From Candidatus Pacearchaeota archaeon (GTDB taxonomy: Archaea > Nanobdellota > Nanobdellia > Pacearchaeales > UBA284): a DNA stretch of 64,000 nucleotides. A program made the position numbers and the translations under genes. The notes under the pieces are model-generated. The model did no database searches, was not told where the DNA came from, and worked only from the letters and a program-made list of their open reading frames with translations. How positions within the stretch are numbered: the stretch's first letter is position 1; the number at the start of each line of letters is the position of its first letter. Where the stretch lies: positions 3,587 to 67,586 of the forward strand of contig JAWANM010000001.1 in NCBI GenBank assembly GCA_038895375.1. The letters are read 5' to 3'. Shown here piece after piece: positions 1 to 48,656 of this stretch.

Positions 1-542
1 TCGCGATAAGGAAACAACAACAATCCTTTTTCTCTTAAAAGTTTTTGACCCATTTCTTTTACAAGAGGCAAATGCTCTTTGGAGACGCCTGCTGTGAAAA
101 AAATCCTGTCATAGGTTTGATTCCATATTGGGTTTTCTTTGTCGAGAGCATCACCCACCACGAATCGAATTTCAAATCGTTTTCTAAACTTTTTGTCCAA
201 ATGAGCTATAAAATTGTTTATGTTTTTGATAGCATTCTCTGTTAAAGGTTGAAAAATTTCTATAGTTGTGACTTGTCCAGGATAAACAAGCCAAGAAACA
301 AGAGCAGCATGATAGCCGGTATTTGTTCCGACTTCGAGAACATCGAGCCCGGGCCTGAGTTCGAGTTTTCTCAACATTCTCGCGATTGTCGTAGGTTGAC
401 TTATTGTCTGACCGAAAGCAATATGCTTGGCCTCATCGCTATAAGGATCGTCCTTAACAAAAAATTTTCTATCAACAATTCTAAAAGCTTGTTCGATTTC
501 TTCCGGCAATCCGGGGTTGTTAATTTTTATCGATTTTATCAT
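1..542 (-). CDS. pcm: Protein-L-isoaspartate O-methyltransferase (partial, runs off window start)
   Basis: Manual minus-strand translation from ATG at 542: MIKSIKINNPGLPEEIEQAF...GQTISQPTTIARMLRKLELRPGLDVLEVGTNTGYHAALVS. This is the PIMT SAM-binding motif. Not in the ORF track because the ORF is open at the window edge. Confidence 0.7.
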   Translation of the reverse strand, partial: MIKSIKINNPGLPEEIEQAFRIVDRKFFVKDDPYSDEAKHIAFGQTISQPTTIARMLRKLELRPGLDVLEVGTNTGYHAALVSWLVYPGQVTTIEIFQPLTENAIKNINNFIAHLDKKFRKRFEIRFVVGDALDKENPIWNQTYDRIFFTAGVSKEHLPLVKEMGQKLLREKGLLLFPYR

Positions 543-1987: not shown

Positions 1988-3211
1988 TCATCCAAGTTTC
2001 CTTTCAATTCTTAAAAGTTCATGCAGTTTTGCAAATCTTTCTTTTCCAAGAATTCCTGCTTTGATTATAGGAATTTGCCATCCTACTGCGAAGTGCGCTA
2101 GAGCATTATCGGAGGTTTCGCCAGAACGATGTGAGATTATGGGTATTAAATCATGCTTCCTCGCAAGCTCAACAACTTTTTTTGTTTCAAGCAAGCTCGC
2201 TACTTGATTCGGCTTTATTATTATAGCATTAATTGCTTTAAGCTTGATTGCTTTCTCTGCACGCTCTAAAGAAGTGCATGTCAAATCGTCACCACAAACC
2301 AAACAGTTCGTTGTTCTTGTTAGGGCAGCAAAATAATCAAAAGCTTCTTCATGAAAAGGATCTTCGACATAGAAAAGATTGTATTTTTTGATAAGCTCTT
2401 CAATGTATTGCTTCTGTTCCTCGTTTGTCAATGCCTTTTGTTTCTTTTTTTCGCTGAAATTTTTGTATTTGTAGTGCTTGGCTTGCCACAAAGAGTTTGC
2501 AGCAATATCTACTCCGAGCTTTAACTTTATATTGAATTTTTCTTTTATTTTGTCTCTAACTTCTAACATAATTTCAAGAACTTTTTCATTGTCAAGCGTG
2601 GCGGCCAAAGCGTTTTCATAAGTTAGGGTATTGTGCCATGTTTTATCTTTTTCTTTGAGTAAAGCTTTTGCTTCTTTGTATGCCTGAAGATTGATAAAAT
2701 AAGCATCGGAAAAGTTTTTTGTTTCTGGCATGATCAAAAATTCCTGAAAATCTGTTTTAAGTTCTTGTTCTGTGTGTTTACCGCCTCCGATGCAATTTCC
2801 TAGAGGCATTGGCATTTCGATTTTTTTCTCACCTGCAAGAAACTGCCATAGTTCTTTTCCTTGAGAAAAAGCCATGGCTTTCAAAACAGCAGTCTCTAAA
2901 GCGTAGAGAGCGTTTCCTCCGATGAGCGAAAAATCTTTAGTTTTGTCAAACTTTCTTACAAGTTCCTCGATTTTTGCAAGATCCTCAAAGGTTTCAAAAG
3001 TCAGTTGTTGTATAGGCTTTTGAAGCGCATTTATTACTCTAACTGAAAAGTCTATGCCTCTAATCGAAAAAGCCCTGACTTCATGCTTGCCTTTGCTCGA
3101 GCCTTCTGGAGCGCTAGCCTCAAAAGTTTTTTCCGTCTTGACAGTGACTGCAATCGTTTCTTCGTTTTTACTATTAAGAATTTTTCTCGCAAATACCTCC
3201 TTTATTTGCAT
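1988..3211 (-). CDS. eno: Enolase
   Basis: C-terminal SHRSGETSDNALAHFAVG motif. 407 aa. Adjacent to rpoK, a conserved archaeal neighbourhood. Confidence 0.9.
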   Translation of the reverse strand: MQIKEVFARKILNSKNEETIAVTVKTEKTFEASAPEGSSKGKHEVRAFSIRGIDFSVRVINALQKPIQQLTFETFEDLAKIEELVRKFDKTKDFSLIGGNALYALETAVLKAMAFSQGKELWQFLAGEKKIEMPMPLGNCIGGGKHTEQELKTDFQEFLIMPETKNFSDAYFINLQAYKEAKALLKEKDKTWHNTLTYENALAATLDNEKVLEIMLEVRDKIKEKFNIKLKLGVDIAANSLWQAKHYKYKNFSEKKKQKALTNEEQKQYIEELIKKYNLFYVEDPFHEEAFDYFAALTRTTNCLVCGDDLTCTSLERAEKAIKLKAINAIIIKPNQVASLLETKKVVELARKHDLIPIISHRSGETSDNALAHFAVGWQIPIIKAGILGKERFAKLHELLRIERKLG

Positions 3212-3241
3212 AACTATTTTCAGAAAAAGTTATATAAAAAC

Positions 3242-3541
3242 TTAACTTTCCTCGCTTGAAGTTTTTTCGCTTTCGACTTTCCTCGAAGGTTCTTCTTCGA
3301 TGAGCTCTTTTATTTCTTCTTTAAACTCTACTTTTCTAGGTTTTGGACGTTTCACTGTTATAGGTAAAACTCCAGCTTCAAATTCGGCTTCAGCTATTTT
3401 AATCGGATCATAACGCATTTCCTCTAGTTGTTCTTTACTCAACTTTATTAGTATGGGAGCGTTTGCACTAATCTGCAAAGCACGAGCTCCCAAAATTCTT
3501 GCAATCTCGTACTTCGTATATTTTTCTTGAACTTTTTTCAT
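3242..3541 (-). CDS. rpoK: DNA-directed RNA polymerase subunit K (Rpb6 homolog)
   Basis: [27 protein letters not shown] matches the Rpb6/RpoK core. Acidic C-terminal tail. Confidence 0.75.
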
Positions 3542-14655: not shown

Positions 14656-14754
14656 GCCGGGATGGCCCAACTGGTACGGCGCAGGCCTTGAGAGCCTGTT
14701 GGACGCAAGTCCTGTCAGGGTTCGAGAACAAGAATCGAAAATCCCTGTCCCGGC
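14656..14754 (+). tRNA. tRNA-Ser (anticodon TGA) with a 15-nt insertion (putative intron) in the T-loop
   Basis: Acceptor GCCGGGA/TCCCGGC. Anticodon stem CAGGC/GCCTG with loop CTTGAGA. Long variable arm GGACGCAAGTCC. T-stem CAGGG/CCCTG encloses 22 nt (TTCGAGAACAAGAATCGAAAAT) instead of 7. Confidence 0.6.
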
Positions 14755-14755
14755 G

Positions 14756-17224: not shown

Positions 17225-20200
17225 TTATTTTCTTTTCTTTTTGAAAACTGCAAAGAAAATGGTAATAATTAAAGCCATCGCAACCAAAATTAAAACAATA
17301 TAAAGAGTTGGGAAAGAAACTTTTCTAGCTTCTTCTTGCTTTTCTTCTGCTTTGCCTTGAATTTTTTCTTCTCTAACTAGTGGCTCCGGCAGCTCCGGCA
17401 GTGTTATGTTTGTTATGTTTGTTTGATTTGTTGGGCCAATGTTTATAGTGCTAGCTCCGCCACCAGCGCCACCACCAGCACCGCCGCCAGCGCCGCCACC
17501 GCTGCTAGGAGAGTAATACATAGGAGCAAAGATGCTTGAATTAGCTATACTAACGTTTCCAGAATAAACATAATTGTGTTCTGTGTCGACTCCGCTGCTT
17601 GCAAGCTCGCTCCAAGAGCCATTATAAGCAAACATTTTCAAACTAGTTTCATCACTGATTTCTCTTTCATTATAGCTCATATTAAGATAGATCCACGAGC
17701 CTACTGATGCTGCAATTACATTGACAAATTTACCAATGTTTCTATAATTTCTCGGGTCTGGTGCTGGTGCTATTGTCTTGTTCAAAGCAATATTTTCTGA
17801 TATAAAGTTTATTGTTTCTTCCAAGCCGATATCAAAATAAGAGACTATATTGTTTGTTGAGTTTAGTGAAACAAATGCAAAAAATTGATTATTTTTCGAC
17901 TCGTCATCAATTAAAATGTTGTTATTGCTAGAAGAGTTAATAAATAAACCAATCTGATTATTGTTTGTTTCAGTTGAAATAATATAATTATCGCGACTAA
18001 ATCCTAAAAGAATACCAAATTCATTTGAATTGGCCTTTGTATTAAAAATACTGTTTTTTGAAGAAGAAAGAACTCCAATGCCTACATAATTATCATTAAA
18101 AGAAGAATTTGTTATGTTGTTGTGGTTAGAATTAAAAAGAGCCAAACCAAAATAATTACCGGAAGAATTGATTAGATCAAAAGTTGTATTTTCAGTTGCT
18201 AAAACAAGCAAGCCATTATTATCAAGACTCTCAGATCCAGCAATGGTTATGTTCTTAAGTGAAGAATTATCGGCATTGCATAAAATTAATTCTGAGAGAG
18301 TTTCATTTTCTAAGGTTACGCTAGAATTATAGAATTTTATTTCTCTGTCGCCAGAACCCGTGTTATTTTCTATAATATTATTACAATAAGTGTCAATATT
18401 AGCATAACCAATCAAATCGAACAAATTATTTTCTCTTATTATATTATCGATGATAACATTATTTTGACCATCTTCAAGATAAAGGCCATAATCATTATAT
18501 TCAAAAATGCTATCATTAATATTGTTGCCATTAGAATCTTCTAAATAAATTCCATAATAATTTCCAGAAGAATTAATCAAAGAAAAATTAGAATCATTTG
18601 TATAATAGACAAATATGCCATTGTTTTGCAAGTAATCTGAGCCGATAACAGTTACATTATAAATTGAAGAGCTATCGGCATCACACAAAATAAGTTCAGA
18701 AAAAATTTCGTCGCTTAAGTTAACACTTTCATTATAGAAGGCAATAGCTCTATCGCCAGAACCAGTAACATTTTCAATAAAGATACGATCACAACTAGAA
18801 TCTGATAAGCTATTAAACCCTACATCTTGCTGTAAGTTATCTTGAACATTGCAATTGCTTATGTTTATACTTAGCTCGCCGCTGACAGGAAGATCATAAA
18901 TATAAATGCCTGTACTAAAATTAGAAATTGTCAAATTAAAGATAGTTATATTTCCACCTTGAGCAGTGTTTATTCCGTAACCTGTGCTATTGCCAGTGAT
19001 GCTATAGCCGGCGCCATTAATTGTTATGTTATTTGAACCAATTGTGAAGCAAGTTCCATTGCTCTGTAAGTTTCCATTTAAAGTGCATGATTCATAAATT
19101 CTATCGCCACATGTATAAATCATGCCGCTTTCTGCAACACAGCCATAAGGAATTGTTAAAGTTCTATTGTTTGAAGCAAAAACACAATTTCCAGCAGCAT
19201 CACAAGCTTGACAATTCCAAACATAGGTTCCTGAATCAAGAATTTTTTCAAAAATTACTGGTATTGCATTTTCTGGCGAGCTATTGGTTTCGTTAGCGTG
19301 CCAGCCACCAGACCAATTGCCATAAAGAGTTACATTTGTTAAATTTACATTATCAGAAGCAGTACAATTAAATATAATATTTCTTGAGTTTGAAGTAAAG
19401 TTATCTTGTGGTTCGTTTAAAATAACTGTAGGTTCTCCAGATATTACGATTAAAGTTCTTGTTGTTGAAATGTTGATTATTCCTATATTTTCTTCCCAAC
19501 ACTGAATTTTCCAGTTGTAAATTCCTTCTTTACTAAGATTGTATGTTATTGTAGTAAATGTATTATTTTCTGCAATAGTTGTATTAACAATGGTGTTGTT
19601 TATTATTAAATCGCATGTCGCATTTGTTGCATTTTTATTTATCGTTGTAAAATTAAAAGTTATTAAAGAATTGTTTGTTATATAACCATTCTCTGGCGAG
19701 TTTAACAAGATGCTCGGCTTAAAGTTCGGCGCATTAACCACATGAGGATACTCGACTTCTACACCAACGCCGCTACAATTAAACCTTATATAAATATAAC
19801 CATTATCGCCCCATCCTGCTCCCCAGCTGTTTTTGACAATCCAATAACTAGTATTTATGTTTCCTGTATCATTATAACCCACAAGCAAGACGCCATGATT
19901 TAAATCAGACCAATTTTGTGGTATATTGCATGTACTATCATTGAACAAACCACCAGAATAGTTGAACCACGCACTGGTAGCTTTAACACCTATAATAATT
20001 GGACCATTATCTATCAATAATTGTTTGAGTTCTTCATTTGATAAAGGGACGGTAACATTTGGATAATTACTTATGTTGACGTTTGTTGTAAAATTAGTTA
20101 TGTTCCACAATCTGGTCGCATAATCTGAACATCTGTCTGAGCATATAGCGTTAGAACAGTTTCCTCCAGTATGGTAAACACATGATGTAGAGCAATTAGA

Positions 20201-21061
20201 ATTGGAGCAATTGCAATTCGTACCATCAACGTAATTAAAACAATTTTCGTCACTTATACCATCCCTCATAATAAAATCAAGGGCAACATCCATCCAACCA
20301 CCACAACAATTCTCATACGATCCATAATAAGGATCTGTGTGGCAGTTAGAAACAAGGTACTCTTCTGCAAGGTCAGGATTTAATCTTGAATTGTTCTGAT
20401 TAATCTCATACTTGGCCTCGAGAGAGGCTATAGTAGAAAAAGCCCAGCAAGAACCGCAAGAACCTTGATTCTTAACAGAAGTAAGCCATCCATGAATTTC
20501 GTCAAAAAATGTAAAATTATATTTGCTATAGTTTGTTCCATTCGGAGGATTGCGCCAGTCCCAATAAGGAAAATCAGAAGCATTATAAGTTTTAACTGGA
20601 ATTTCTTTGATTAATAATTTTGTATCCTCTCTAGATTCTTCAAAAAAATTCTCTTTAAAACTTTCTCTTGCTCTATTCTCTGCATAAATACATTTAGAAG
20701 ATTTTGTCAAGTCTAATAGCTCATTAACGGGAATTTCTTTCATAATTTTTTTACCTGTTTCGTTAGATGGAACAATACAAAAAGCCATGCCATTTTTGCT
20801 TTTAAGCTCATAGCCATGCTTAGAACAGTAAGAAAATTCCTTGCCGCATTCGCCTCTCAAAAAAGACCATTCTTCGCATCTTTCTTTATTTGGCATCACA
20901 CAAATGCCTTTCTGGCCTAAAGCAGTTTCTACAATTTTATATTCATAACCCAATTCGCTACAATAAACTGCCGCAGGGTTTGGTAATGCAGAAACATAAC
21001 TTGTAAGAAAAATTAAAGCGAATATCACAAAGATAATCAAAAAAAATCTTGAGATTCTCAT
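17225..21061 (-). CDS. Giant membrane-anchored surface protein: signal peptide, DUF333-like modules, papain-family (C1) cysteine peptidase domain, Ig-like/beta-helix repeats, (GGGA)n linker, C-terminal TM
   Basis: NPAAVYCSELGY..GICVMPNKERCEEWSFLRGECG (DUF333). QGSCGSCWAFS (C1 catalytic Cys), LNHGVLLVGY (His), IVKNSWG (Asn). Right-handed beta-helix-like repeats (NITIFNLTISNFSTGIYIYD...). GGGAGGGAGGGAGGGAS. C-terminus LYIVLILVAMALIITIFFAVFKKKRK. Confidence 0.75.
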   Translation of the reverse strand: MRISRFFLIIFVIFALIFLTSYVSALPNPAAVYCSELGYEYKIVETALGQKGICVMPNKERCEEWSFLRGECGKEFSYCSKHGYELKSKNGMAFCIVPSNETGKKIMKEIPVNELLDLTKSSKCIYAENRARESFKENFFEESREDTKLLIKEIPVKTYNASDFPYWDWRNPPNGTNYSKYNFTFFDEIHGWLTSVKNQGSCGSCWAFSTIASLEAKYEINQNNSRLNPDLAEEYLVSNCHTDPYYGSYENCCGGWMDVALDFIMRDGISDENCFNYVDGTNCNCSNSNCSTSCVYHTGGNCSNAICSDRCSDYATRLWNITNFTTNVNISNYPNVTVPLSNEELKQLLIDNGPIIIGVKATSAWFNYSGGLFNDSTCNIPQNWSDLNHGVLLVGYNDTGNINTSYWIVKNSWGAGWGDNGYIYIRFNCSGVGVEVEYPHVVNAPNFKPSILLNSPENGYITNNSLITFNFTTINKNATNATCDLIINNTIVNTTIAENNTFTTITYNLSKEGIYNWKIQCWEENIGIINISTTRTLIVISGEPTVILNEPQDNFTSNSRNIIFNCTASDNVNLTNVTLYGNWSGGWHANETNSSPENAIPVIFEKILDSGTYVWNCQACDAAGNCVFASNNRTLTIPYGCVAESGMIYTCGDRIYESCTLNGNLQSNGTCFTIGSNNITINGAGYSITGNSTGYGINTAQGGNITIFNLTISNFSTGIYIYDLPVSGELSINISNCNVQDNLQQDVGFNSLSDSSCDRIFIENVTGSGDRAIAFYNESVNLSDEIFSELILCDADSSSIYNVTVIGSDYLQNNGIFVYYTNDSNFSLINSSGNYYGIYLEDSNGNNINDSIFEYNDYGLYLEDGQNNVIIDNIIRENNLFDLIGYANIDTYCNNIIENNTGSGDREIKFYNSSVTLENETLSELILCNADNSSLKNITIAGSESLDNNGLLVLATENTTFDLINSSGNYFGLALFNSNHNNITNSSFNDNYVGIGVLSSSKNSIFNTKANSNEFGILLGFSRDNYIISTETNNNQIGLFINSSSNNNILIDDESKNNQFFAFVSLNSTNNIVSYFDIGLEETINFISENIALNKTIAPAPDPRNYRNIGKFVNVIAASVGSWIYLNMSYNEREISDETSLKMFAYNGSWSELASSGVDTEHNYVYSGNVSIANSSIFAPMYYSPSSGGGAGGGAGGGAGGGASTINIGPTNQTNITNITLPELPEPLVREEKIQGKAEEKQEEARKVSFPTLYIVLILVAMALIITIFFAVFKKKRK

Positions 21062-21381
21062 TTTTTAAAATCTCCTGGTTTACATTCTCCTCGATAATAA
21101 GCCCATTCTTCGCATTTCGAACCATCTGGAAAAATGCAAACGCCGTACTGGCCTTTTTCGTTTTCTCTAATTTCAAGAGTTCCATTATTTTGAATGCAAT
21201 AAACACTTGCCGGATTTGGTATTGACTGATTTGCTTTTTTTTCTTTATTTGAATTCAAGAATTTTAGCATTACCAAAACTAAAGCAAAAACTAGAACTAA
21301 AGTCGTGAAAAGCAAAATTTTTTTCATCTTGCCTCTTTTCGAAAATAGAAATTTTCTGCATTTATAAATTTTCTCGATCAA
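21058..21381 (-). CDS. Small secreted DUF333-domain protein
   Basis: Signal peptide then NPASVYCIQNNGTLEIRENEKGQYGVCIFPDGSKCEEWAYYRGEC. Stop overlaps the start of the giant gene (ATGA). Confidence 0.6.
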   Translation of the reverse strand: MIEKIYKCRKFLFSKRGKMKKILLFTTLVLVFALVLVMLKFLNSNKEKKANQSIPNPASVYCIQNNGTLEIRENEKGQYGVCIFPDGSKCEEWAYYRGECKPGDFKK

Positions 21382-21414: not shown

Positions 21415-21740
21415 GCAGTTGAGAAGTTGGCTCTCCGGAAGGAGGAAGGTCCGCTCACCCCATCAAATTTTTGATGGAAGTGGCCGGCTTTCGCAAGAAA
21501 GCTTGCCGCGAGGCAAAGCTCTGCCACAGAAACGACACAGCTCTTGCTGAGAAATGAAGCTTGCGCAGATCTTTGAAGCAAGAGATTTGATGAAACGCCT
21601 CGAAAGAGGGACGCAAAAAATTTTTGCGTCGGCAACTCGGCCGGTGCAACTCGCATTCGCGAGGCTTAGTAGGATGCCAACATGGTCTGTTTGAAGCCAA
21701 AACTTCAAAGACCAACAAAAAGCGGCCTATTCTCAACTGC
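21415..21740 (+). ncRNA. rnpB: Structured GC-rich ncRNA, most likely RNase P RNA
   Basis: 340-nt GC-rich island with no coherent ORF. Termini form a perfect 10-bp helix (GCAGTTGAGA 21415-21424 / TCTCAACTGC 21731-21740). P3-like hairpin CUCC-GGAA-GGAG followed by GAAGGUCCGCUC (like CR-I GGAAAGUCCGGGCUC). ACAAAAAGCGGCCUAU near the 3' end (like CR-V ACAGAANCCGGCUUA) can pair with GGUCCGC (P4). Followed by hairpin GCTCGG-CTATC-CCGAGC plus TTTT. Confidence 0.6.
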
Positions 21741-30186: not shown

Positions 30187-31656
30187 TTGAATATAAAAAC
30201 AAACATAAAAATGGAAAAAGATCAAAAGCAAGAAAAGAGAAAGGATCTAGGGCTGAAAGCCAAAAAAGAAGAAGCCGAATGGTTTGCTGAATTGCTACAA
30301 AAAGCAGAACTAATTTCTTATACCCAAGTTTCGGGATGTTATGTTTTAAGACCGAGAGCTTATGCTATTTGGGAACAAGTTCAAAAATATCTTGATGAGA
30401 AACTAAAGAAGGATGGTGTAAAAAATGTTTATTTTCCTTTGTTAATTCCAGAATCGCTTCTAAAAAAAGAACAACAACACGTCAAGGGATTTGAGCCAGA
30501 AGTTGCCTGGGTAACAGAACACGGCAAGAAAAAATTTGAAGAAAAACTTGCAATCAGGCCGACCTCGGAAACTATAATGTATGCAAGCTATGCTAAATGG
30601 ATTCGTTCGTGGCGCGATCTTCCGTTAAGGCTTAATCAATGGTGTAATGTAATTAGATGGGAATTCAAAAACCCAATTCCTTTGATAAGATCGAGAGAGT
30701 TTTTATGGCAAGAAGGGCACTCTTGTTTTGCGAGCAAAGAAGAAGCTGAAAAAGAGGCTGCAAAAATTTTAGATATTTATGCTAAAACTTATGAAGAAAT
30801 GTACGCCGTGCCTGTAATCAAAGGCAGAAAAACAGAAAAAGAGAAATTTCCTGGAGCTGAAAGAACTTTAACTTTAGAAGTTTTCTTGCCTTCTGGGAAA
30901 GCGGCACAGGCTTGTACTGTTCATAACTTGGGACAGAACTTTGCAAAAGTTTTCAACATTAAATTTAGAGACAAAGACGAGAAAGAAAAGTATGTATGGC
31001 AAAACTCGTGGGGCCTTTCGACGAGAAGCATGGGTATAGCAATAATGATGCATTCTGATGATAAAGGCCTTGTTTTGTCGCCAAAAGTAGCAGATCCTCA
31101 AATTGTTATCGTTCCTATTTTCAAGGAAGAGGAAAAAACGAAAGTAATAGAAGAAGCCGAAAAAATAAAGCAAGAATTGAAAGAGTTTAGAGTCGAACTC
31201 GACACCAGGGCTTTTACACCGGGCTATAAGTTTAATGATTGGGAAATGAAGGGAGTTCCACTCAGAATTGAAATAGGTCCAAAAGACTTGAAAGCTAAAC
31301 AAGTTGTTCTTGCAAGGCGCGACTCTGGAAAGAAAGAAGTTGTAAAAAGAAATAAACTAAAAAAGAAAATTTCTGAAGTTTTAGAAGACATTCACAATTC
31401 GCTTTACAAAAAAGCTGAAGACTTTCTAAAAAAAAGCATTGTTAGAGTTTCCAAAATGGATAAGTTGATTGAAGCCATAAAGAATAAAAAACTTGCCAAA
31501 ACAGAATTTTGTGGCGCGCAGGAATGTGAGGACTGGATTAAAGCAAAAACTCAAGGAGCCAAAATAATTTGTATTGTAGAAGAAAAAGCCAAGGGAAAAT
31601 GTGTTTATTGCAATAAAGTTGCAAATCACGTTGTTTATATAGCAAAAAGTTATTGA
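30187..31656 (+). CDS. proS: Prolyl-tRNA synthetase (archaeal/eukaryotic type)
   Basis: EWFAELLQKAELISYTQVSGCYVLRPRAYAIWEQV..IRPTSETIMYASYAKWIRSWRDLPLRLNQWCNVIRWE. Start may be the internal Met at 30211. Confidence 0.85.
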   Translation: MNIKTNIKMEKDQKQEKRKDLGLKAKKEEAEWFAELLQKAELISYTQVSGCYVLRPRAYAIWEQVQKYLDEKLKKDGVKNVYFPLLIPESLLKKEQQHVKGFEPEVAWVTEHGKKKFEEKLAIRPTSETIMYASYAKWIRSWRDLPLRLNQWCNVIRWEFKNPIPLIRSREFLWQEGHSCFASKEEAEKEAAKILDIYAKTYEEMYAVPVIKGRKTEKEKFPGAERTLTLEVFLPSGKAAQACTVHNLGQNFAKVFNIKFRDKDEKEKYVWQNSWGLSTRSMGIAIMMHSDDKGLVLSPKVADPQIVIVPIFKEEEKTKVIEEAEKIKQELKEFRVELDTRAFTPGYKFNDWEMKGVPLRIEIGPKDLKAKQVVLARRDSGKKEVVKRNKLKKKISEVLEDIHNSLYKKAEDFLKKSIVRVSKMDKLIEAIKNKKLAKTEFCGAQECEDWIKAKTQGAKIICIVEEKAKGKCVYCNKVANHVVYIAKSY

Positions 31657-37063: not shown

Positions 37064-38542
37064 TTGTTGGCATTAAAATTAAAAATGAAAAGTCCGTATG
37101 TAATGCTTTATGGCTTCAATGTAGATGTTCTACATTTAAAGTACAGATTAAAAAAAGATTCTCTTCTTAAAAACAGTAAACAACTTAATTTGATTATCAA
37201 CAAAGTTTCTCCTGCAGTTATTGCTACAGCTTGCGCAGGCATAAGCCATCAGGAAAAAAGTTTTTCTTGGCTTAGAAAAAAATATAGAAATCTTGATAAG
37301 TTGATCGGCTTGGATAAAAAGCTTGTTGAGATGGGGCATTCCTCTATAGTCGAACACATGTTTTTTAATTTTGATGTTGTCTTGAGCAGGCTTGCTGTGG
37401 AGTTCTTGGAAAGCCATAGATTGGCAAGCTACACCGAAAAATCACAGAGATTTACCGAAGTTGATTACAATGCTTTTTATTTGCCATCTGAACATCAAGA
37501 TTTTGTTTCTCTTTTCAAAAAGCAAATTGAGCTATACAAAAAAGCTTTAGACTTGTCGAGAAAGCAACTAAAAGAAAAATTTGGAGAAAATTGGAAAAAA
37601 TACGATAATAAGGCCAAAGAAGACTCAAGATTTGTTTTGCCTCTGGCAGTTTTAGCTCCTTTAAATTTTAGCGTGAATGGACGTGAATTAGAATATATCA
37701 TTCAAAAGGCAAATTCTCACTCTTTACCAGAAATAAAAAAATTTGGTGAATTGCTAATTAAGGAATTGAATAGCAAAGTTCCTTGGGCCATGCACTTAAT
37801 CAAGCATACAGAAAAAGATGTTTATTATGAAAAAAATAAACAACTGGAAGAAGTTGTAAAGAGCTTGGCCTTGTATCAAAATTGTCAACAAAATACTTCT
37901 ATTGAAGTAGAAAAAGACGCCGACGACAAAATAATTGCTGCTCTTATTTTTGAAAATGCTCAGATCTCGTATGAAAAAGCTCTTGATTTTGTAAAAAAAC
38001 AAGATCAAAAGCTAAAATTTGAAATTGTTAGAAAAGCCTTAAAAAACATGGAAATGTATCATAGACCTCCGAGAGCTTTTGAAATTCCTTATGTAACTGT
38101 ATCTACTGCAATATCTGCTTCTTGTTTTGCCCAACTAAAAAGACATAGAATGCTTACGCTTTTGGTACAGCCCTACGATCCTAGCTTGGGATACACTATT
38201 CCGGAATCTATACATGAAATCGGTCTTGCAAAGGAGTATCTCGAATTAATGGAGCAATCCTCGGAATTGCTTTTCAAGCTTAGAAAGCAAGAGGATCCAG
38301 AAGCGGAATATGTAGTTACAAATGGCCACAAAAGAAGGGTGATTATTAAAATGAATTTTAGAGAGCTCTATCACTTTTCTAGATTAAGACAAGACAAGCA
38401 TGCTCAATGGGAAATTAGGAACCTAGCAAACGAAATTGTTGATCGAGTTAAAAAAGATATGCCTATAACGACAATTCTTCTTGGCGGCAAACACGAATTC
38501 CAAGACATCAAAAAATTGTTTGAAAAATATGAACAAATCTAA
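37064..38542 (+). CDS. thyX: Flavin-dependent thymidylate synthase ThyX-like, double-length
   Basis: N-half HSSIVEHMFFNFDVVLSRLAVEFLESHRLASYTEKSQRF is the ThyX signature (SHR..S....SQRF). C-half has a degenerate second copy (LKRHRMLTLL). 492 aa. Confidence 0.5.
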   Translation: MLALKLKMKSPYVMLYGFNVDVLHLKYRLKKDSLLKNSKQLNLIINKVSPAVIATACAGISHQEKSFSWLRKKYRNLDKLIGLDKKLVEMGHSSIVEHMFFNFDVVLSRLAVEFLESHRLASYTEKSQRFTEVDYNAFYLPSEHQDFVSLFKKQIELYKKALDLSRKQLKEKFGENWKKYDNKAKEDSRFVLPLAVLAPLNFSVNGRELEYIIQKANSHSLPEIKKFGELLIKELNSKVPWAMHLIKHTEKDVYYEKNKQLEEVVKSLALYQNCQQNTSIEVEKDADDKIIAALIFENAQISYEKALDFVKKQDQKLKFEIVRKALKNMEMYHRPPRAFEIPYVTVSTAISASCFAQLKRHRMLTLLVQPYDPSLGYTIPESIHEIGLAKEYLELMEQSSELLFKLRKQEDPEAEYVVTNGHKRRVIIKMNFRELYHFSRLRQDKHAQWEIRNLANEIVDRVKKDMPITTILLGGKHEFQDIKKLFEKYEQI

Positions 38543-44494: not shown

Positions 44495-44598
44495 TGGGGC
44501 TGCCCGGATTTTCATTTGGAATTTTGAACCGGGGTCTCGAGTGTTCTTGGATTTTTCTCCCAAGACTCGGGTACTAAACCAAGCTATACTACAGCCCC
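44495..44598 (-). tRNA. tRNA-Pro (anticodon TGG) with two introns: ~15 nt in the anticodon loop and ~14 nt in the T-loop
   Basis: Minus strand: acceptor GGGGCTG/CAGCCCC. D-stem GTAT/GTAC. Anticodon stem CGAGT ... ACTCG with loop CTTGGGA followed by insertion GAAAAATCCAAGAAC (contains UCCAAG complementary to the anticodon loop). T-stem CCCGG/CCGGG encloses 21 nt TTCAAAATTCCAAATGAAAAT. 104 nt total, 75 nt after removal of both inserts. Confidence 0.6.
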
Positions 44599-44642
44599 TT
44601 AAGAGTAAAGCAAAAATATATTTAAAAAGATTATTTCATTCG

Positions 44643-45965: not shown

Positions 45966-47813
45966 TTAAAAAATAATTTCGAAATCTCCCAAATGTTTTT
46001 TCAATGCAAAAATCAATTGCGGCGTAATCTTTTTGCTTGCTTTCTTCTTAAGATAAGAGTTTAGTTCTTCAGTGCTTGAATCTTGAATCTTATCGCCTGT
46101 TATTTTTTTAATTTTTTCTGACTCTACATCTGGAACCAAAAATGCTACGTTGTCAAAAATGAATAAATGACCTTGTTTCTTTATTTTTTTATCTTGCTCT
46201 TTAGCATAATAAATTATGTCTGCTTTATTTTTTTGCGAATCTATAAATTCTTGTCTCTGAATGTATTCGAGCAAAGCCGTTGAAAGTTCATGCACTGCTT
46301 TATGCATATTTGCTATATCGTGCTTGCTAATTTTTCCTTTTTTATGCTTCTTTACTATTTCCAAAATTTCCTTAAGCAAAATTAAATTCCTTCTGGAGAT
46401 TTTGTTTTTATCTACAAGTTTCTTTTTGAATACTTCTAAAAGCGAGCTTTCTGGAGTTTCACCTATAAGAGGTTTAAGAAGCTCTTTAACTTGAACGTAC
46501 TGTTGTTTTATTTCTCTACTTGCTATTTTCTCTTCTATCTGCTTCATCAGTTTCTTAAGTCTTTCTATGTATTCGGAAACCTCTTCAAGTAGTTCATCTA
46601 TATCTTTTCCTGTTATTTCTAACTTAGAAGTATGCTCGTATTTTTTGTAAAGGTTTACAATTTTCTCAAGAATTTTTACATATTTTTCCTCAAGAAGCTT
46701 TTCCTTTTCTACAAGAATTTCTTGCATCAGAGTTACTGTTTCTCTAGGCGTTGGAGGGGCCAAGCCATAAAGCATTAAAACGGCTTGACTCGGTGTTATA
46801 ACACCCCACCATATATCTTCTAAAACAATATCGTTGAGTTTACGTTTTACATTTTCTGCAACTTTCTCGCCGAGAGACATAAACAAGTCTATGGCTTCTG
46901 GGCTTGGTTTTATTTTTCCCATTTTCAATAGCAATTTCCATGGCATAAAAGCTCCTCTATCGTAAAGCGGAACACCATCACGAATAAAAGTAAAAATTAC
47001 AGGATGCGCATCTTTTACAGCTTCCCAGAATTCTGTTAAGATGTAAACTTGCACGTTCAATTTATTTTTAACTCCAGCCTGTTCTGCAGCCTCGACAGCA
47101 TAACTCCATATAATGGCTCTCAACTTTTCTTTGAGCTCATACCTTGACATTCTCTTGACATCTGTATCGTCTATAACAAGATACACATCGACATCGCTTG
47201 TTTTTTTTGCGGTTCCTCTAACCAAAGAGCCAGCTATAACATAGCTTACCACATATCTCTCAAACTTGGCAAGACACATTCTTTTGTGGATTGTTGCAAG
47301 CCTCAAGGCTGCTAAAAAATCTTGCGAATCGTGCAATGGAAAAGAAAGTGCATAGCTATCTATAAGTTCATACTTGCCATCAAAACAAGCTTCCCATACC
47401 ATCGATCTTGTCTTGATGTGCAACCAGATTCTAGGCCTAAAGTCTTTAACAAGCGCTATAGCTTCTGCCTTTACAACCGGAAGCTCCTTGAGTTTTTCGT
47501 CTGGCAAAATTATGAGCAAATGTATCAATCTCTCATCTTCTCTTTCTTTGATAACTTCTTCCTCTTCCTCTAAAATTTTAGAAGCAAAAGGAGGCAAAAT
47601 TCCTATCGATTCGACAAAAGGAAATTTCTTAAGAAGCTCTTTTTTAAATTCTTGTAATTTGCCTTTCGTCTTCTCGATTTCTTTTTTAACTTCTTCTGGG
47701 ATTCTTTTCTCAAAATCTTTTAAATCTTGAACATTAAAGCCTTGTAAGCTAGACTCTTTGCTTTCGTCTTTTTGCTTTTCCTTTTTCTCTTCAGGCATAG
47801 CTTTCCAAGGCAA
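45966..47813 (-). CDS. Large (615 aa) Pol-beta-superfamily nucleotidyltransferase-domain protein with long helical C-terminal region
   Basis: Central GS..RGT motif plus the acidic pair IAGSLVRGTAKKTSDVDVYLVIDD. No signal peptide. K/E-rich coiled-coil-like C-terminal half. Confidence 0.5.
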   Translation of the reverse strand: MPWKAMPEEKKEKQKDESKESSLQGFNVQDLKDFEKRIPEEVKKEIEKTKGKLQEFKKELLKKFPFVESIGILPPFASKILEEEEEVIKEREDERLIHLLIILPDEKLKELPVVKAEAIALVKDFRPRIWLHIKTRSMVWEACFDGKYELIDSYALSFPLHDSQDFLAALRLATIHKRMCLAKFERYVVSYVIAGSLVRGTAKKTSDVDVYLVIDDTDVKRMSRYELKEKLRAIIWSYAVEAAEQAGVKNKLNVQVYILTEFWEAVKDAHPVIFTFIRDGVPLYDRGAFMPWKLLLKMGKIKPSPEAIDLFMSLGEKVAENVKRKLNDIVLEDIWWGVITPSQAVLMLYGLAPPTPRETVTLMQEILVEKEKLLEEKYVKILEKIVNLYKKYEHTSKLEITGKDIDELLEEVSEYIERLKKLMKQIEEKIASREIKQQYVQVKELLKPLIGETPESSLLEVFKKKLVDKNKISRRNLILLKEILEIVKKHKKGKISKHDIANMHKAVHELSTALLEYIQRQEFIDSQKNKADIIYYAKEQDKKIKKQGHLFIFDNVAFLVPDVESEKIKKITGDKIQDSSTEELNSYLKKKASKKITPQLIFALKKHLGDFEIIF

Positions 47814-47898
47814 ATGAAGTTTTTAAAGGTTTGCAAAAAAATAAACAAAAAGAATAAAAACCTTTGCTTTTTATTAAAAGCAAAACACAAGGGCCTGT

Positions 47899-47971
47899 GG
47901 GCCTGTGGTCTAGTGGCTATGACGTCTCCCTTACGCGGAGAAGGTCCTCGGTTCGAATCCGAGCAGGCCCA
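47899..47971 (+). tRNA. tRNA-Val (anticodon TAC)
   Basis: Acceptor GGGCCTG/CAGGCCC. Anticodon stem TCTCC/GGAGA, loop CTTACGC. T-arm CTCGG-TTCGAAT-CCGAG. Preceded by an 8-nt direct duplication of its own 5' end (GGGCCTGT). Confidence 0.85.
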
Positions 47972-47978
47972 TGATAAA

Positions 47979-48656
47979 ATGTTTATAAAAAAATTGTTCG
48001 AAGGCGAAATAGACGAATCAGTGCATAAGCAGTTCGTAAGATTTGGAAAAGGTAGCTACAGCTTGAGAGCGATAATAAATGTAAGAAAAAATGACAAAAT
48101 TAAAGTTACGACAAGTTTTGAATTGGCCAACGACTTGGTCGGATTTGTTTCAAATCTTGCAGAAAAATTTTCGATTAACGGAATAATTCTAAGCAAAGAG
48201 CCTATTCAAGGCCTTGAATTCAAAAAGAAAAATATTCTTTCTTGTGAAATCAACAAAGAAATAAAAGCTAAAGATCTAAAAGAGCTTTCTACCAAAGCTT
48301 ATGCAACGCTTCTCGATTGTAGCGCTCAAGGAATTTCGCTAAAGATGAAGAAAAAACTGCCAAGACCAAAAAAAAGCGCAGAACTAAAAGTAGACGACAA
48401 GTTCTGCATGCTCGAGCTTGATAAGAAGTTTTGGGAAAAATTTCATGAGGATTTCTTGTTCGATTTGCCTCACGAGTTTAAAAAAGCAAGAATAGAACAT
48501 ACTTATATAATCGAAGAAATAATCATTCCAAAAGAAATCCAAAACGAAAAAGATTTTGAAAAAATAAGATTGATGGCAAAAAGAAAAGGAAAAATCATAA
48601 GGAAAATTGTTGTCGATGGAAAAGAAATCATAAAAGAAAAGCATTTCGAGGCTTAA
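47979..48656 (+). CDS. Hypothetical protein (225 aa) upstream of the r-protein operon
   Basis: Start reassigned to the Met at 47979. The ORF-track start 47772 would run through tRNA-Val. Confidence 0.4.
   Translation: MFIKKLFEGEIDESVHKQFVRFGKGSYSLRAIINVRKNDKIKVTTSFELANDLVGFVSNLAEKFSINGIILSKEPIQGLEFKKKNILSCEINKEIKAKDLKELSTKAYATLLDCSAQGISLKMKKKLPRPKKSAELKVDDKFCMLELDKKFWEKFHEDFLFDLPHEFKKARIEHTYIIEEIIIPKEIQNEKDFEKIRLMAKRKGKIIRKIVVDGKEIIKEKHFEA

Follow-up and report, generated by a model that had tools for sequence, protein, structure and literature searches.

The locus at 44495..44598 on the minus strand of the window (the whole 64-kb stretch of DNA analysed here, with positions counted from its first letter) is very probably a functional tRNA-Pro(UGG) gene of a very small, uncultivated archaeon of the Pacearchaeota/Woesearchaeota kind (DPANN), with its own TATA-box promoter and a 104-nt precursor that holds two short, protein-spliced introns. 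The DNA of the window is archaeal and includes an RNase P RNA (21415-21740) as well as a prolyl-tRNA synthetase (ProRS) gene at 30187-31656; its G+C content is 33.8%. The features of the locus are as follows.

44495..44598, minus strand: pre-tRNA-Pro(UGG), whole gene, 104 nt; G1 at 44598, discriminator A73 at 44495, CCA not encoded; assigned from the sequence, the ARAGORN call after in-silico splicing and orthology.
44617..44626, minus strand: TATA-like box TTTAAATATA, 19-28 nt upstream of G1 of tRNA-Pro; putative archaeal promoter, read from the sequence.
44559..44598, minus strand: exon 1, with the 5' strand of the acceptor stem, the D arm, the 5' strand of the anticodon stem and loop positions 32-37 (CUUGGG; anticodon UGG, G37).
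44544..44558, minus strand: intron 1, 15 nt, AGAAAAAUCCAAGAA; canonical position 37/38; CAAG pairs with C32-G35; 3' bulge AA↓C38 (arrows mark predicted cuts); bulge-helix-bulge (BHB) geometry assigned by hand.
44523..44543, minus strand: exon 2, with C38, the 3' strand of the anticodon stem, the 4-nt variable region, the 5' strand of the T stem and T-loop positions 54-59 (UUCAAA).
44509..44522, minus strand: intron 2, 14 nt, AUUCCAAAUGAAAA; non-canonical position 59/60 in the T-loop; UGAA pairs with U54-A57; 3' bulge AA↓U60; exact interval from a BHB scan; absent from six orthologues, same site in the relative L002.
44495..44508, minus strand: exon 3, with U60, the 3' strands of the T stem and the acceptor stem, and A73.

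The minus-strand sequence of 44495-44598 (GGGGCTGTAGTATAGCTTGGTTTAGTACCCGAGTCTTGGGAGAAAAATCCAAGAACACTCGAGACCCCGGTTCAAAATTCCAAATGAAAATCCGGGCAGCCCCA, 104 nt) was parsed by hand as GGGGCTG TA GTAT AGCTTGGTTTA GTAC C CGAGT CTTGGG (AGAAAAATCCAAGAA) C ACTCG AGAC CCCGG TTCAAA (ATTCCAAATGAAAA) T CCGGG CAGCCCC A, where the inserts stand in parentheses. The acceptor stem is formed by GGGGCTG and CAGCCCC, the D arm by GTAT and GTAC, the anticodon stem by CGAGT and ACTCG, and the T stem by CCCGG and CCGGG; the anticodon loop reads CTTGGG...C, the T-loop TTCAAA...T, the variable region has 4 nt and the discriminator is A. The original prediction had given these coordinates, this length and the full set of normal tRNA-Pro stems, and all three proved exact on the sequence and on the ARAGORN reading of the spliced form. 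Its assignment as tRNA-Pro(UGG) agrees with the same ARAGORN reading, with the anticodon UGG, G37 and discriminator A73, and with orthology to the tRNA-Pro(UGG) of relatives.

In the unspliced state, the gene received no ARAGORN call in the 64-kb window, with or without the intron option, and no Rfam match either at the gathering score or at E<=1; kilobase-long 'intron' calls returned by ARAGORN at a lowered threshold were regarded as noise. When both inserts were removed, ARAGORN reported a tRNA-Pro(tgg) of 75 nt whose cloverleaf is perfect and whose four stems are all intact. This is the 75-nt product that had been foreseen, and it is nearly identical to the tRNA-Pro of L001, the closest Pacearchaeota genome. 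Removal of one insert alone gave nothing or a wrong call. One of these, a 'tRNA-Ser(tga)' for the Pro gene spliced in the T-loop only, was rejected, since ARAGORN had shifted the intron by 2 nt in the 5' direction, to a place within the anticodon (after U34), and the call is contradicted by the BHB geometry and by L001. The anticodon assignments of ARAGORN are unreliable on intron-containing input, and identities were settled by hand parse, BHB geometry and orthologues. The ordinary tRNAs that ARAGORN found in the window number five (His, Met, Arg, Ser-GGA and Val). A mechanical ORF at 47772-48656 (plus strand) overlaps the tRNA-Val gene at 47898-47972; the real protein start is probably the ATG at 47979, and no Pfam match was obtained for the protein read from there (225 aa tested).

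The silence of the standard tRNA finders could also be explained by a decaying pseudogene, i.e., a former tRNA-Pro with two insertions, the function of which is supplied by another genomic copy, and the view is limited to 64 kb of the genome, so that a second, intron-less tRNA-Pro(UGG) could exist beyond it. Against this, the four stems and the conserved positions are intact once the inserts are removed, the inserts obey BHB geometry and are not random, and the promoter box common to the other tRNA genes of the window has been kept. A TTTTAA(A/T)-like box lies about 20-30 nt upstream of all seven tRNA genes of the window (7/7), the two interrupted ones included. Short T-runs are seen downstream of both interrupted tRNAs and are less evident after the other five.

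The lengths of the two inserts (about 15 and 14 nt) and their placement at the canonical anticodon-loop site and in the T-loop had been anticipated correctly, as judged from the prediction tools and the orthologues. The complementarity between UCCAAG and CUUGGG and between UUCA and UGAA, also pointed out beforehand, is supported by folding. In intron 1, the helix CUUG/CAAG is followed by AA↓C and stacks on the anticodon stem, the 5' site being placed in GG↓A. The helix of intron 2, UUCA/UGAA, is followed by AA↓U and stacks on the T stem, with the 5' site in AA↓A, which gives position 59/60. Both 4-bp helices and both 3-nt 3' bulges are present in the unconstrained minimum free energy (MFE) fold, with pair probabilities of 0.85-0.95 for the helix of intron 1 and 0.62-0.73 for that of intron 2, and the MFE of the pre-tRNA-Pro has a z-score of -3.0 against shuffles. 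Owing to a run of A residues, every register from 56/57 through 59/60 would yield the product UUCAAAU; the BHB rule picks 59/60, with cuts at A59↓A and A↓U60.

A 4-bp central helix with a 3-nt bulge at the 3' site, stacked on the exon helix h, was thus found for both Pro introns. The second 3-nt bulge and the intron helix h' of a strict hBHBh' motif were found for neither, the h' helices being only 2 bp long and costing about +4 kcal/mol when forced. In intron 1, h' would consist of a G-C and an A-U pair over an AAAA loop; it is unstable and competes with the 6-bp extension CUUGGG/UCCAAG. In the MFE fold, this helix has grown to 6 bp and the 5' site then falls at the helix end, outside any bulge. 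Folding of the junctions, proposed as a check with the original prediction, therefore bore out the 4-bp helix with its 3-nt 3' bulge at both introns but not a stable 5' bulge with h'. Because the 2-bp h' helices are energetically unfavourable, both introns would be best described, on the basis of the modelled folds, as relaxed hBH (bulge-helix-loop) motifs, the type that had been proposed for them. The relaxed hBH motif is a recognised sub-class of the BHB motif (PMC3239211; PMC4090602). Intron duplication was weighed as the source of a TCCAA (UCCAA) motif common to both Pro introns and dismissed; in intron 1 the motif is forced by the pairing with the anticodon loop, and the likeness is regarded as coincidental.

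Comparison with related genomes was made through the neighbouring genes. The L11 protein of the window is 76 and 73% identical to its counterparts in two Candidatus Pacearchaeota MAGs (L001 and L002, respectively) and about 50-56% identical to those of other Pace- and Woesearchaeota, and the gene order L11, tRNA-Pro(TGG), L37ae is kept in relatives. In L001, an intron-less tRNA-Pro(TGG) occupies the matching slot between L11 and L37ae. Apart from one indel in the D-loop and one substitution in the variable loop, it agrees with the predicted spliced product, and its junction sequences, CTTGGG↓CACTCG and TTCAAA↓TCCGGG, are equal to the predicted spliced junctions; removal of the inserts at the predicted sites thus yields a canonical cloverleaf that matches L001 at both junctions. 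An intron-less tRNA-Pro is also present in L005, L006, L010 and L011, those of L005, L010 and L011 standing at the matching syntenic position, as in L001. The canonical intron alone was found in the tRNA-Pro of three further genomes (L004, L008 and L013). The tRNA-Pro of L002 has introns at both 37/38 and 59/60, of 47 and 41 nt. Its exons differ from those of the window gene at 1 of 75 positions; the introns are alike only in their helix-forming ends, the remainder being unrelated. The longer homologous introns (those of L002 and of the locus L096) hold an internal hairpin. Many redundant matches of the BHB pipeline on 60 genome loci merely cut long canonical introns in two and were discarded.

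Since L002 keeps the exons and the pairing ends of the introns at 73% L11 identity, these parts appear to be under selection and the rest not. Conserved exons, positions and pairing ends with free interiors are, as far as sequence comparison goes, the pattern of functional spliced introns. For the pseudogene reading, this is a serious difficulty: the gene stands in a conserved syntenic slot where relatives keep tRNA-Pro(UGG), and in L002 both positions are occupied in near-identical exons, though L11 is only 73% identical. With stems intact, promoter box present and synteny kept, none of the marks of a pseudogene was found. An assembly or sequencing artefact, e.g., a chimeric join or duplicated k-mers within the tRNA gene, might be suspected in what is evidently a metagenome-type assembly, the more so as the public gene index has no entry for the exact L11 protein of the window. 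However, the inserts are no repeats of the adjoining sequence, two different genes of the window have a like architecture, an independent assembly (L002) has introns at matching sites, and dozens of unrelated metagenome contigs carry 59/60 introns (see below). As the orthologue pattern fits functional spliced introns, an artefact is considered excluded for practical purposes and a pseudogene very unlikely.

The same comparison bears on the possibility that the T-loop insert is retained, so that the mature tRNA would have an enlarged T-loop with a small extra hairpin and the anticodon intron alone would be spliced. Transfer RNAs with non-canonical arms do occur in nature, according to the accessible part of one report (PMC7609411). 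Yet a 21-nt T-loop would abolish T54-A58 and the contacts between D-loop and T-loop that are needed for the L shape, among close relatives the insert ranges in length from 14 to 41 nt or is absent, and only features of the endonuclease motif are conserved, namely the 4-bp helix, the AA↓U bulge and covariation with position 57. Retention is thus held to be highly improbable, and removal of both inserts is the preferred reading.

A scan of the SPLITS type was run on the window, in which all 3-4-3 BHB geometries (4-bp helix, 2-bp outer helix, intron of 8-120 nt) were enumerated, the intron was removed and the remainder was passed to ARAGORN. On both strands it returned two genes only, tRNA-Pro (intron 44509-44522) and a tRNA-Ser(TGA) at 14656 (plus strand); two shuffled windows treated in the same way gave zero genes. 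The recurrence of the T-loop architecture in tRNA-Ser(TGA), which had been noted from the sequence, was in this way recovered with an exact 59/60 intron. Its features are the following.

14656..14755, plus strand: tRNA-Ser(UGA), class II, 100 nt; anticodon loop intact and without an intron there; long variable arm; found by the BHB scan.
14727..14741, plus strand: intron of tRNA-Ser(UGA), 15 nt, AACAAGAAUCGAAAA; position 59/60; CGAA pairs with U54-G57; 3' bulge AA↓U60; h' impossible.

The T-loop context of this gene reads UUCG AG↓A ACAAGAAU CGAA AA↓U, in a register equal to that of the Pro gene. Position 57 and its partner in the intron change together, from A-U in the Pro gene to G-C in the Ser gene, i.e., in a compensatory manner. 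The gene was missed by ARAGORN, and its Rfam tRNA match is weak, sub-threshold and limited to the 5' part (25.6 bits). ARAGORN labelled it 'Pro(tgg) i(37,11)' in the BHB scan, a misreading of the long variable arm which the hand parse and the BHB geometry rule out. Since ARAGORN and Rfam overlook both interrupted genes, tRNA-Pro(UGG) and tRNA-Ser(UGA) would seem to be missing from a genome of this lineage.

The occurrence of 59/60 introns elsewhere was surveyed in metagenomes with the pattern CCGGTTCAAA-N(8-38)-TGAAAATCCGG, which gave at least 120 matching stretches. A stem test, i.e., a 7-bp acceptor helix within 330 nt upstream together with a paired 49:65, was passed by 70 of the 120 matches listed, and about 68 of them look like real, full tRNA genes with 59/60 introns and perfect acceptor and T stems. 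Two matches (L118 and L172) passed the stem test, yet are unlike tRNAs. About 50 of the 120 matches listed are without a perfect 7-bp acceptor helix within 330 nt upstream, and most of those that were read are chance matches in coding sequence; at least L083, L106 and L112 are real tRNA-Pro genes which the test missed, being incomplete or split by a 3/4 intron. Among the matches listed, the metagenomic 59/60 genes include tRNA-Pro (UGG, CGG and GGG anticodons) as well as Ser-, Tyr-, Leu- and Phe-like genes, identified by eye since ARAGORN proved unreliable on spliced sequences as well, and many of them carry further introns. When the fetched loci were scanned without a forced pattern, more 59/60 introns were found, with UUCG/CGAA (L096) and with UUCG/CGAG and UUCA/UGAG (two in L134). 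In all of these, AA↓U60 comes directly after the helix. Position 57 and its partner in the intron covary throughout, as A-U in UUCA loops and as G-C in UUCG loops (the Ser gene of the window, L096 and two in L134).

Further disrupted genes were observed in the same material. In two metagenomic contigs (L106, Ga0233425_10045475, and L112, ORJL010358461.1), the acceptor stem of tRNA-Pro(UGG) is by hand parse apparently split at 3/4 too. The inserts, read by hand as GGG↓...↓GCTA or GCTG, have a convincing helix (AATG/CATT or CATG/CATG) and a bulge AA↓G, and the gene of L106 would carry three introns, at 3/4, 37/38 and 59/60. Other metagenomic loci (L105/L149, L160, L161 and L101/L108/L135/L176) combine a 59/60 intron with inserts in the D-arm or D-loop region. 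Several metagenome contigs have more than one interrupted tRNA, and L134 has three with T-loop introns; no likeness between the introns of different genes on one contig was seen in the window or in L134, and no case for intron transposition is made. A Candidatus Aenigmatarchaeota MAG (L040, about 270-380, plus strand) contains a tRNA with about 35 nt inserted in the D-arm (tgggccgatagatcaatggtaga[...]atcgccaccttggca...); this would make a further non-canonical intron position in DPANN. In addition, tRNA-Leu(UAA) genes with anticodon-loop introns of about 50-60 nt were seen in L029 (about 3230-3350), L036 (about 2100-2240) and L040 (about 2980-3120). These introns hold GATGATGA-like and CTGA-like elements, reminiscent of box C/D guide RNAs hosted in tRNA introns.

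The survey gives an indication that 59/60 introns may be very common in environmental archaeal tRNA genes. The orthologous tRNA-Pro(UGG) genes of closely related Pace- and Woesearchaeota have zero, one or two introns, and metagenomic ones have up to three (3/4, 37/38 and 59/60, by hand). It could be that the 59/60 T-loop site is a major, fast-turning-over intron hot spot across uncultivated archaea, above all in tRNA-Pro, a reading that is put forward tentatively and with more doubt than confidence. If it is true, these genes would form a natural series for tracing the gain and loss of protein-spliced introns, and a small homotetramer-type EndA would routinely handle relaxed motifs in the T-arm and the acceptor stem.

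The processing of the window gene can be proposed by analogy. In each intron, four nucleotides would pair with the four loop nucleotides next after the stem, so that the anticodon stem and the T stem are each extended by a 4-bp helix. The 3' splice site would then lie in a 3-nt bulge 3' of the helix (AA↓C38 and AA↓U60) and the 5' site 2 nt past the helix on the opposite strand, in a bulge or a loop (GG↓A and AA↓A). This would be the BHB geometry as measured by the archaeal splicing endonuclease EndA, here in the relaxed hBH form. EndA would cut the pre-tRNA-Pro at four sites, two per motif, an RtcB-type ligase would join the three exons, and CCA would be added after exon joining. The native fold and the modification of the T-loop (T54/Psi55 region) would presumably be possible only once intron 2 is gone.

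An EndA gene was sought by tblastn in the 64-kb window and in 1.3 Mb of fetched loci with an approximate M. jannaschii EndA query, a weak search that found none, and no Pfam match to EndA was obtained among ten candidate (unassigned) ORFs of the window. For RtcB, too, neither the 64-kb window nor the 1.3 Mb of fetched loci yielded a gene, which is a weak negative. EndAs of broad specificity are of three types, (alpha-beta)2 with a CSL, epsilon2 with an ASL and alpha4 with an L3 loop. It is reasonable to suppose that the EndA of this lineage has relaxed specificity, as suggested by the hBH-like motifs and by the accessible part of a DPANN survey (PMC5829648). That part of the survey, rather than the genome in the window, would predict an alpha4 EndA with an L3 loop.

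Other genes of the window were noted as well. At 45966-47813 (minus strand), two genes upstream of tRNA-Pro, a protein of 615 aa is encoded, whose sole match is a weak NTP_transf_2 nucleotidyltransferase domain (E = 1.9e-5); the long remainder is unassigned and rich in lysine and glutamate. The gene at 17225-21061 (minus strand) encodes a secreted protein of 1278 aa with DUF333, a papain-family cysteine protease and right-handed beta-helix (NosD-like) repeats; a small ORF directly upstream of it (21058-21381, minus strand) appears by eye to start with a DUF333-like segment. A 492-aa protein encoded at 37064-38542 (plus strand) has two Thy1 (ThyX) stretches; it is about double the length of a normal ThyX and resembles a tandem fusion.

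The tRNA-Pro gene of the window is a clear further case of a phenomenon that has been described before and is to be expected in this lineage. Introns at 59/60, multi-intron DPANN tRNAs (in ARMAN-2) and, according to the accessible part of the literature, disrupted tRNAs of Pace- and Woesearchaeota have already been published. What the window gene adds is a set of locus-matched orthologues with and without introns, covariation at the pair between position 57 and the intron, and the indicated commonness of 59/60 introns. Since it can be set beside an orthologue that lacks introns at this locus and beside a relative whose introns at like sites are different, it is a well-controlled case for the tolerance of T-loop introns in DPANN. 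It constrains what the splicing endonuclease of the lineage must recognise and reveals no new mechanism.

The statement in the original prediction that multi-intron tRNAs with T-loop introns are known mainly from Thermoproteales understates prior knowledge, as 59/60 is a listed non-canonical position of archaeal tRNA introns (PMC4090602) and was described in 2011 for ARMAN-2, a DPANN archaeon in which tRNA-Cys has a 59/60 hBH intron and tRNA-Pro(GGG) has introns at 53/54 and 59/60 (PMC3239211). The epsilon2 EndA of ARMAN-2 has broad specificity and cleaves relaxed motifs (PMC3239211). ARMAN-2 thus shares with the Pro gene of the window the DPANN superphylum, the 59/60 T-loop position, the hBH motif on the T stem and more than one intron per tRNA gene. 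It belongs to another phylum and the tRNA species are different, the partner intron lies at 53/54 rather than at the canonical 37/38, and its EndA is a three-unit epsilon2 enzyme, whereas the accessible part of PMC5829648 would predict alpha4 with an L3 loop for the lineage of the window.

Among the Thermoproteales, the tRNA-Pro(UGG) gene of Pyrobaculum islandicum is interrupted at 25/26, 37/38 and 56/57 (Sugahara et al. 2007, cited through PMC4090602). The likeness to the window gene extends to the isoacceptor, to a canonical and a T-loop intron in one gene and to BHB or relaxed-BHB junctions, but the T-loop position is 56/57 instead of 59/60. Fast intron turnover between related species is also shared with the lineage of the window. 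[quoted passage not shown] The canonical archaeal 37/38 BHB intron resembles intron 1 in its position, in the 4-bp helix on 32-35 and in the 3-nt 3' bulge adjoining the anticodon stem, and it differs in that h' of intron 1 is only 2 bp long and unstable.

The closest survey is that of Kaneta et al. 2018 (PMC5829648), the accessible part of which covers tRNA predictions for one Pacearchaeota and one Woesearchaeota genome, among others. There it is reported that tRNA genes are disrupted markedly more often in multiple DPANN lineages with L3-loop alpha4 EndAs, and that gaps in the tRNA sets of DPANN point to unidentified disrupted genes. The window gene is in keeping with the larger share of non-canonical and multiple introns described in that part for DPANN with L3-loop EndAs; the survey, to the extent that its text was accessible, gives proportions per genome, without this gene, the recurrence of 59/60 in tRNA-Pro or a comparison of orthologues with and without introns.
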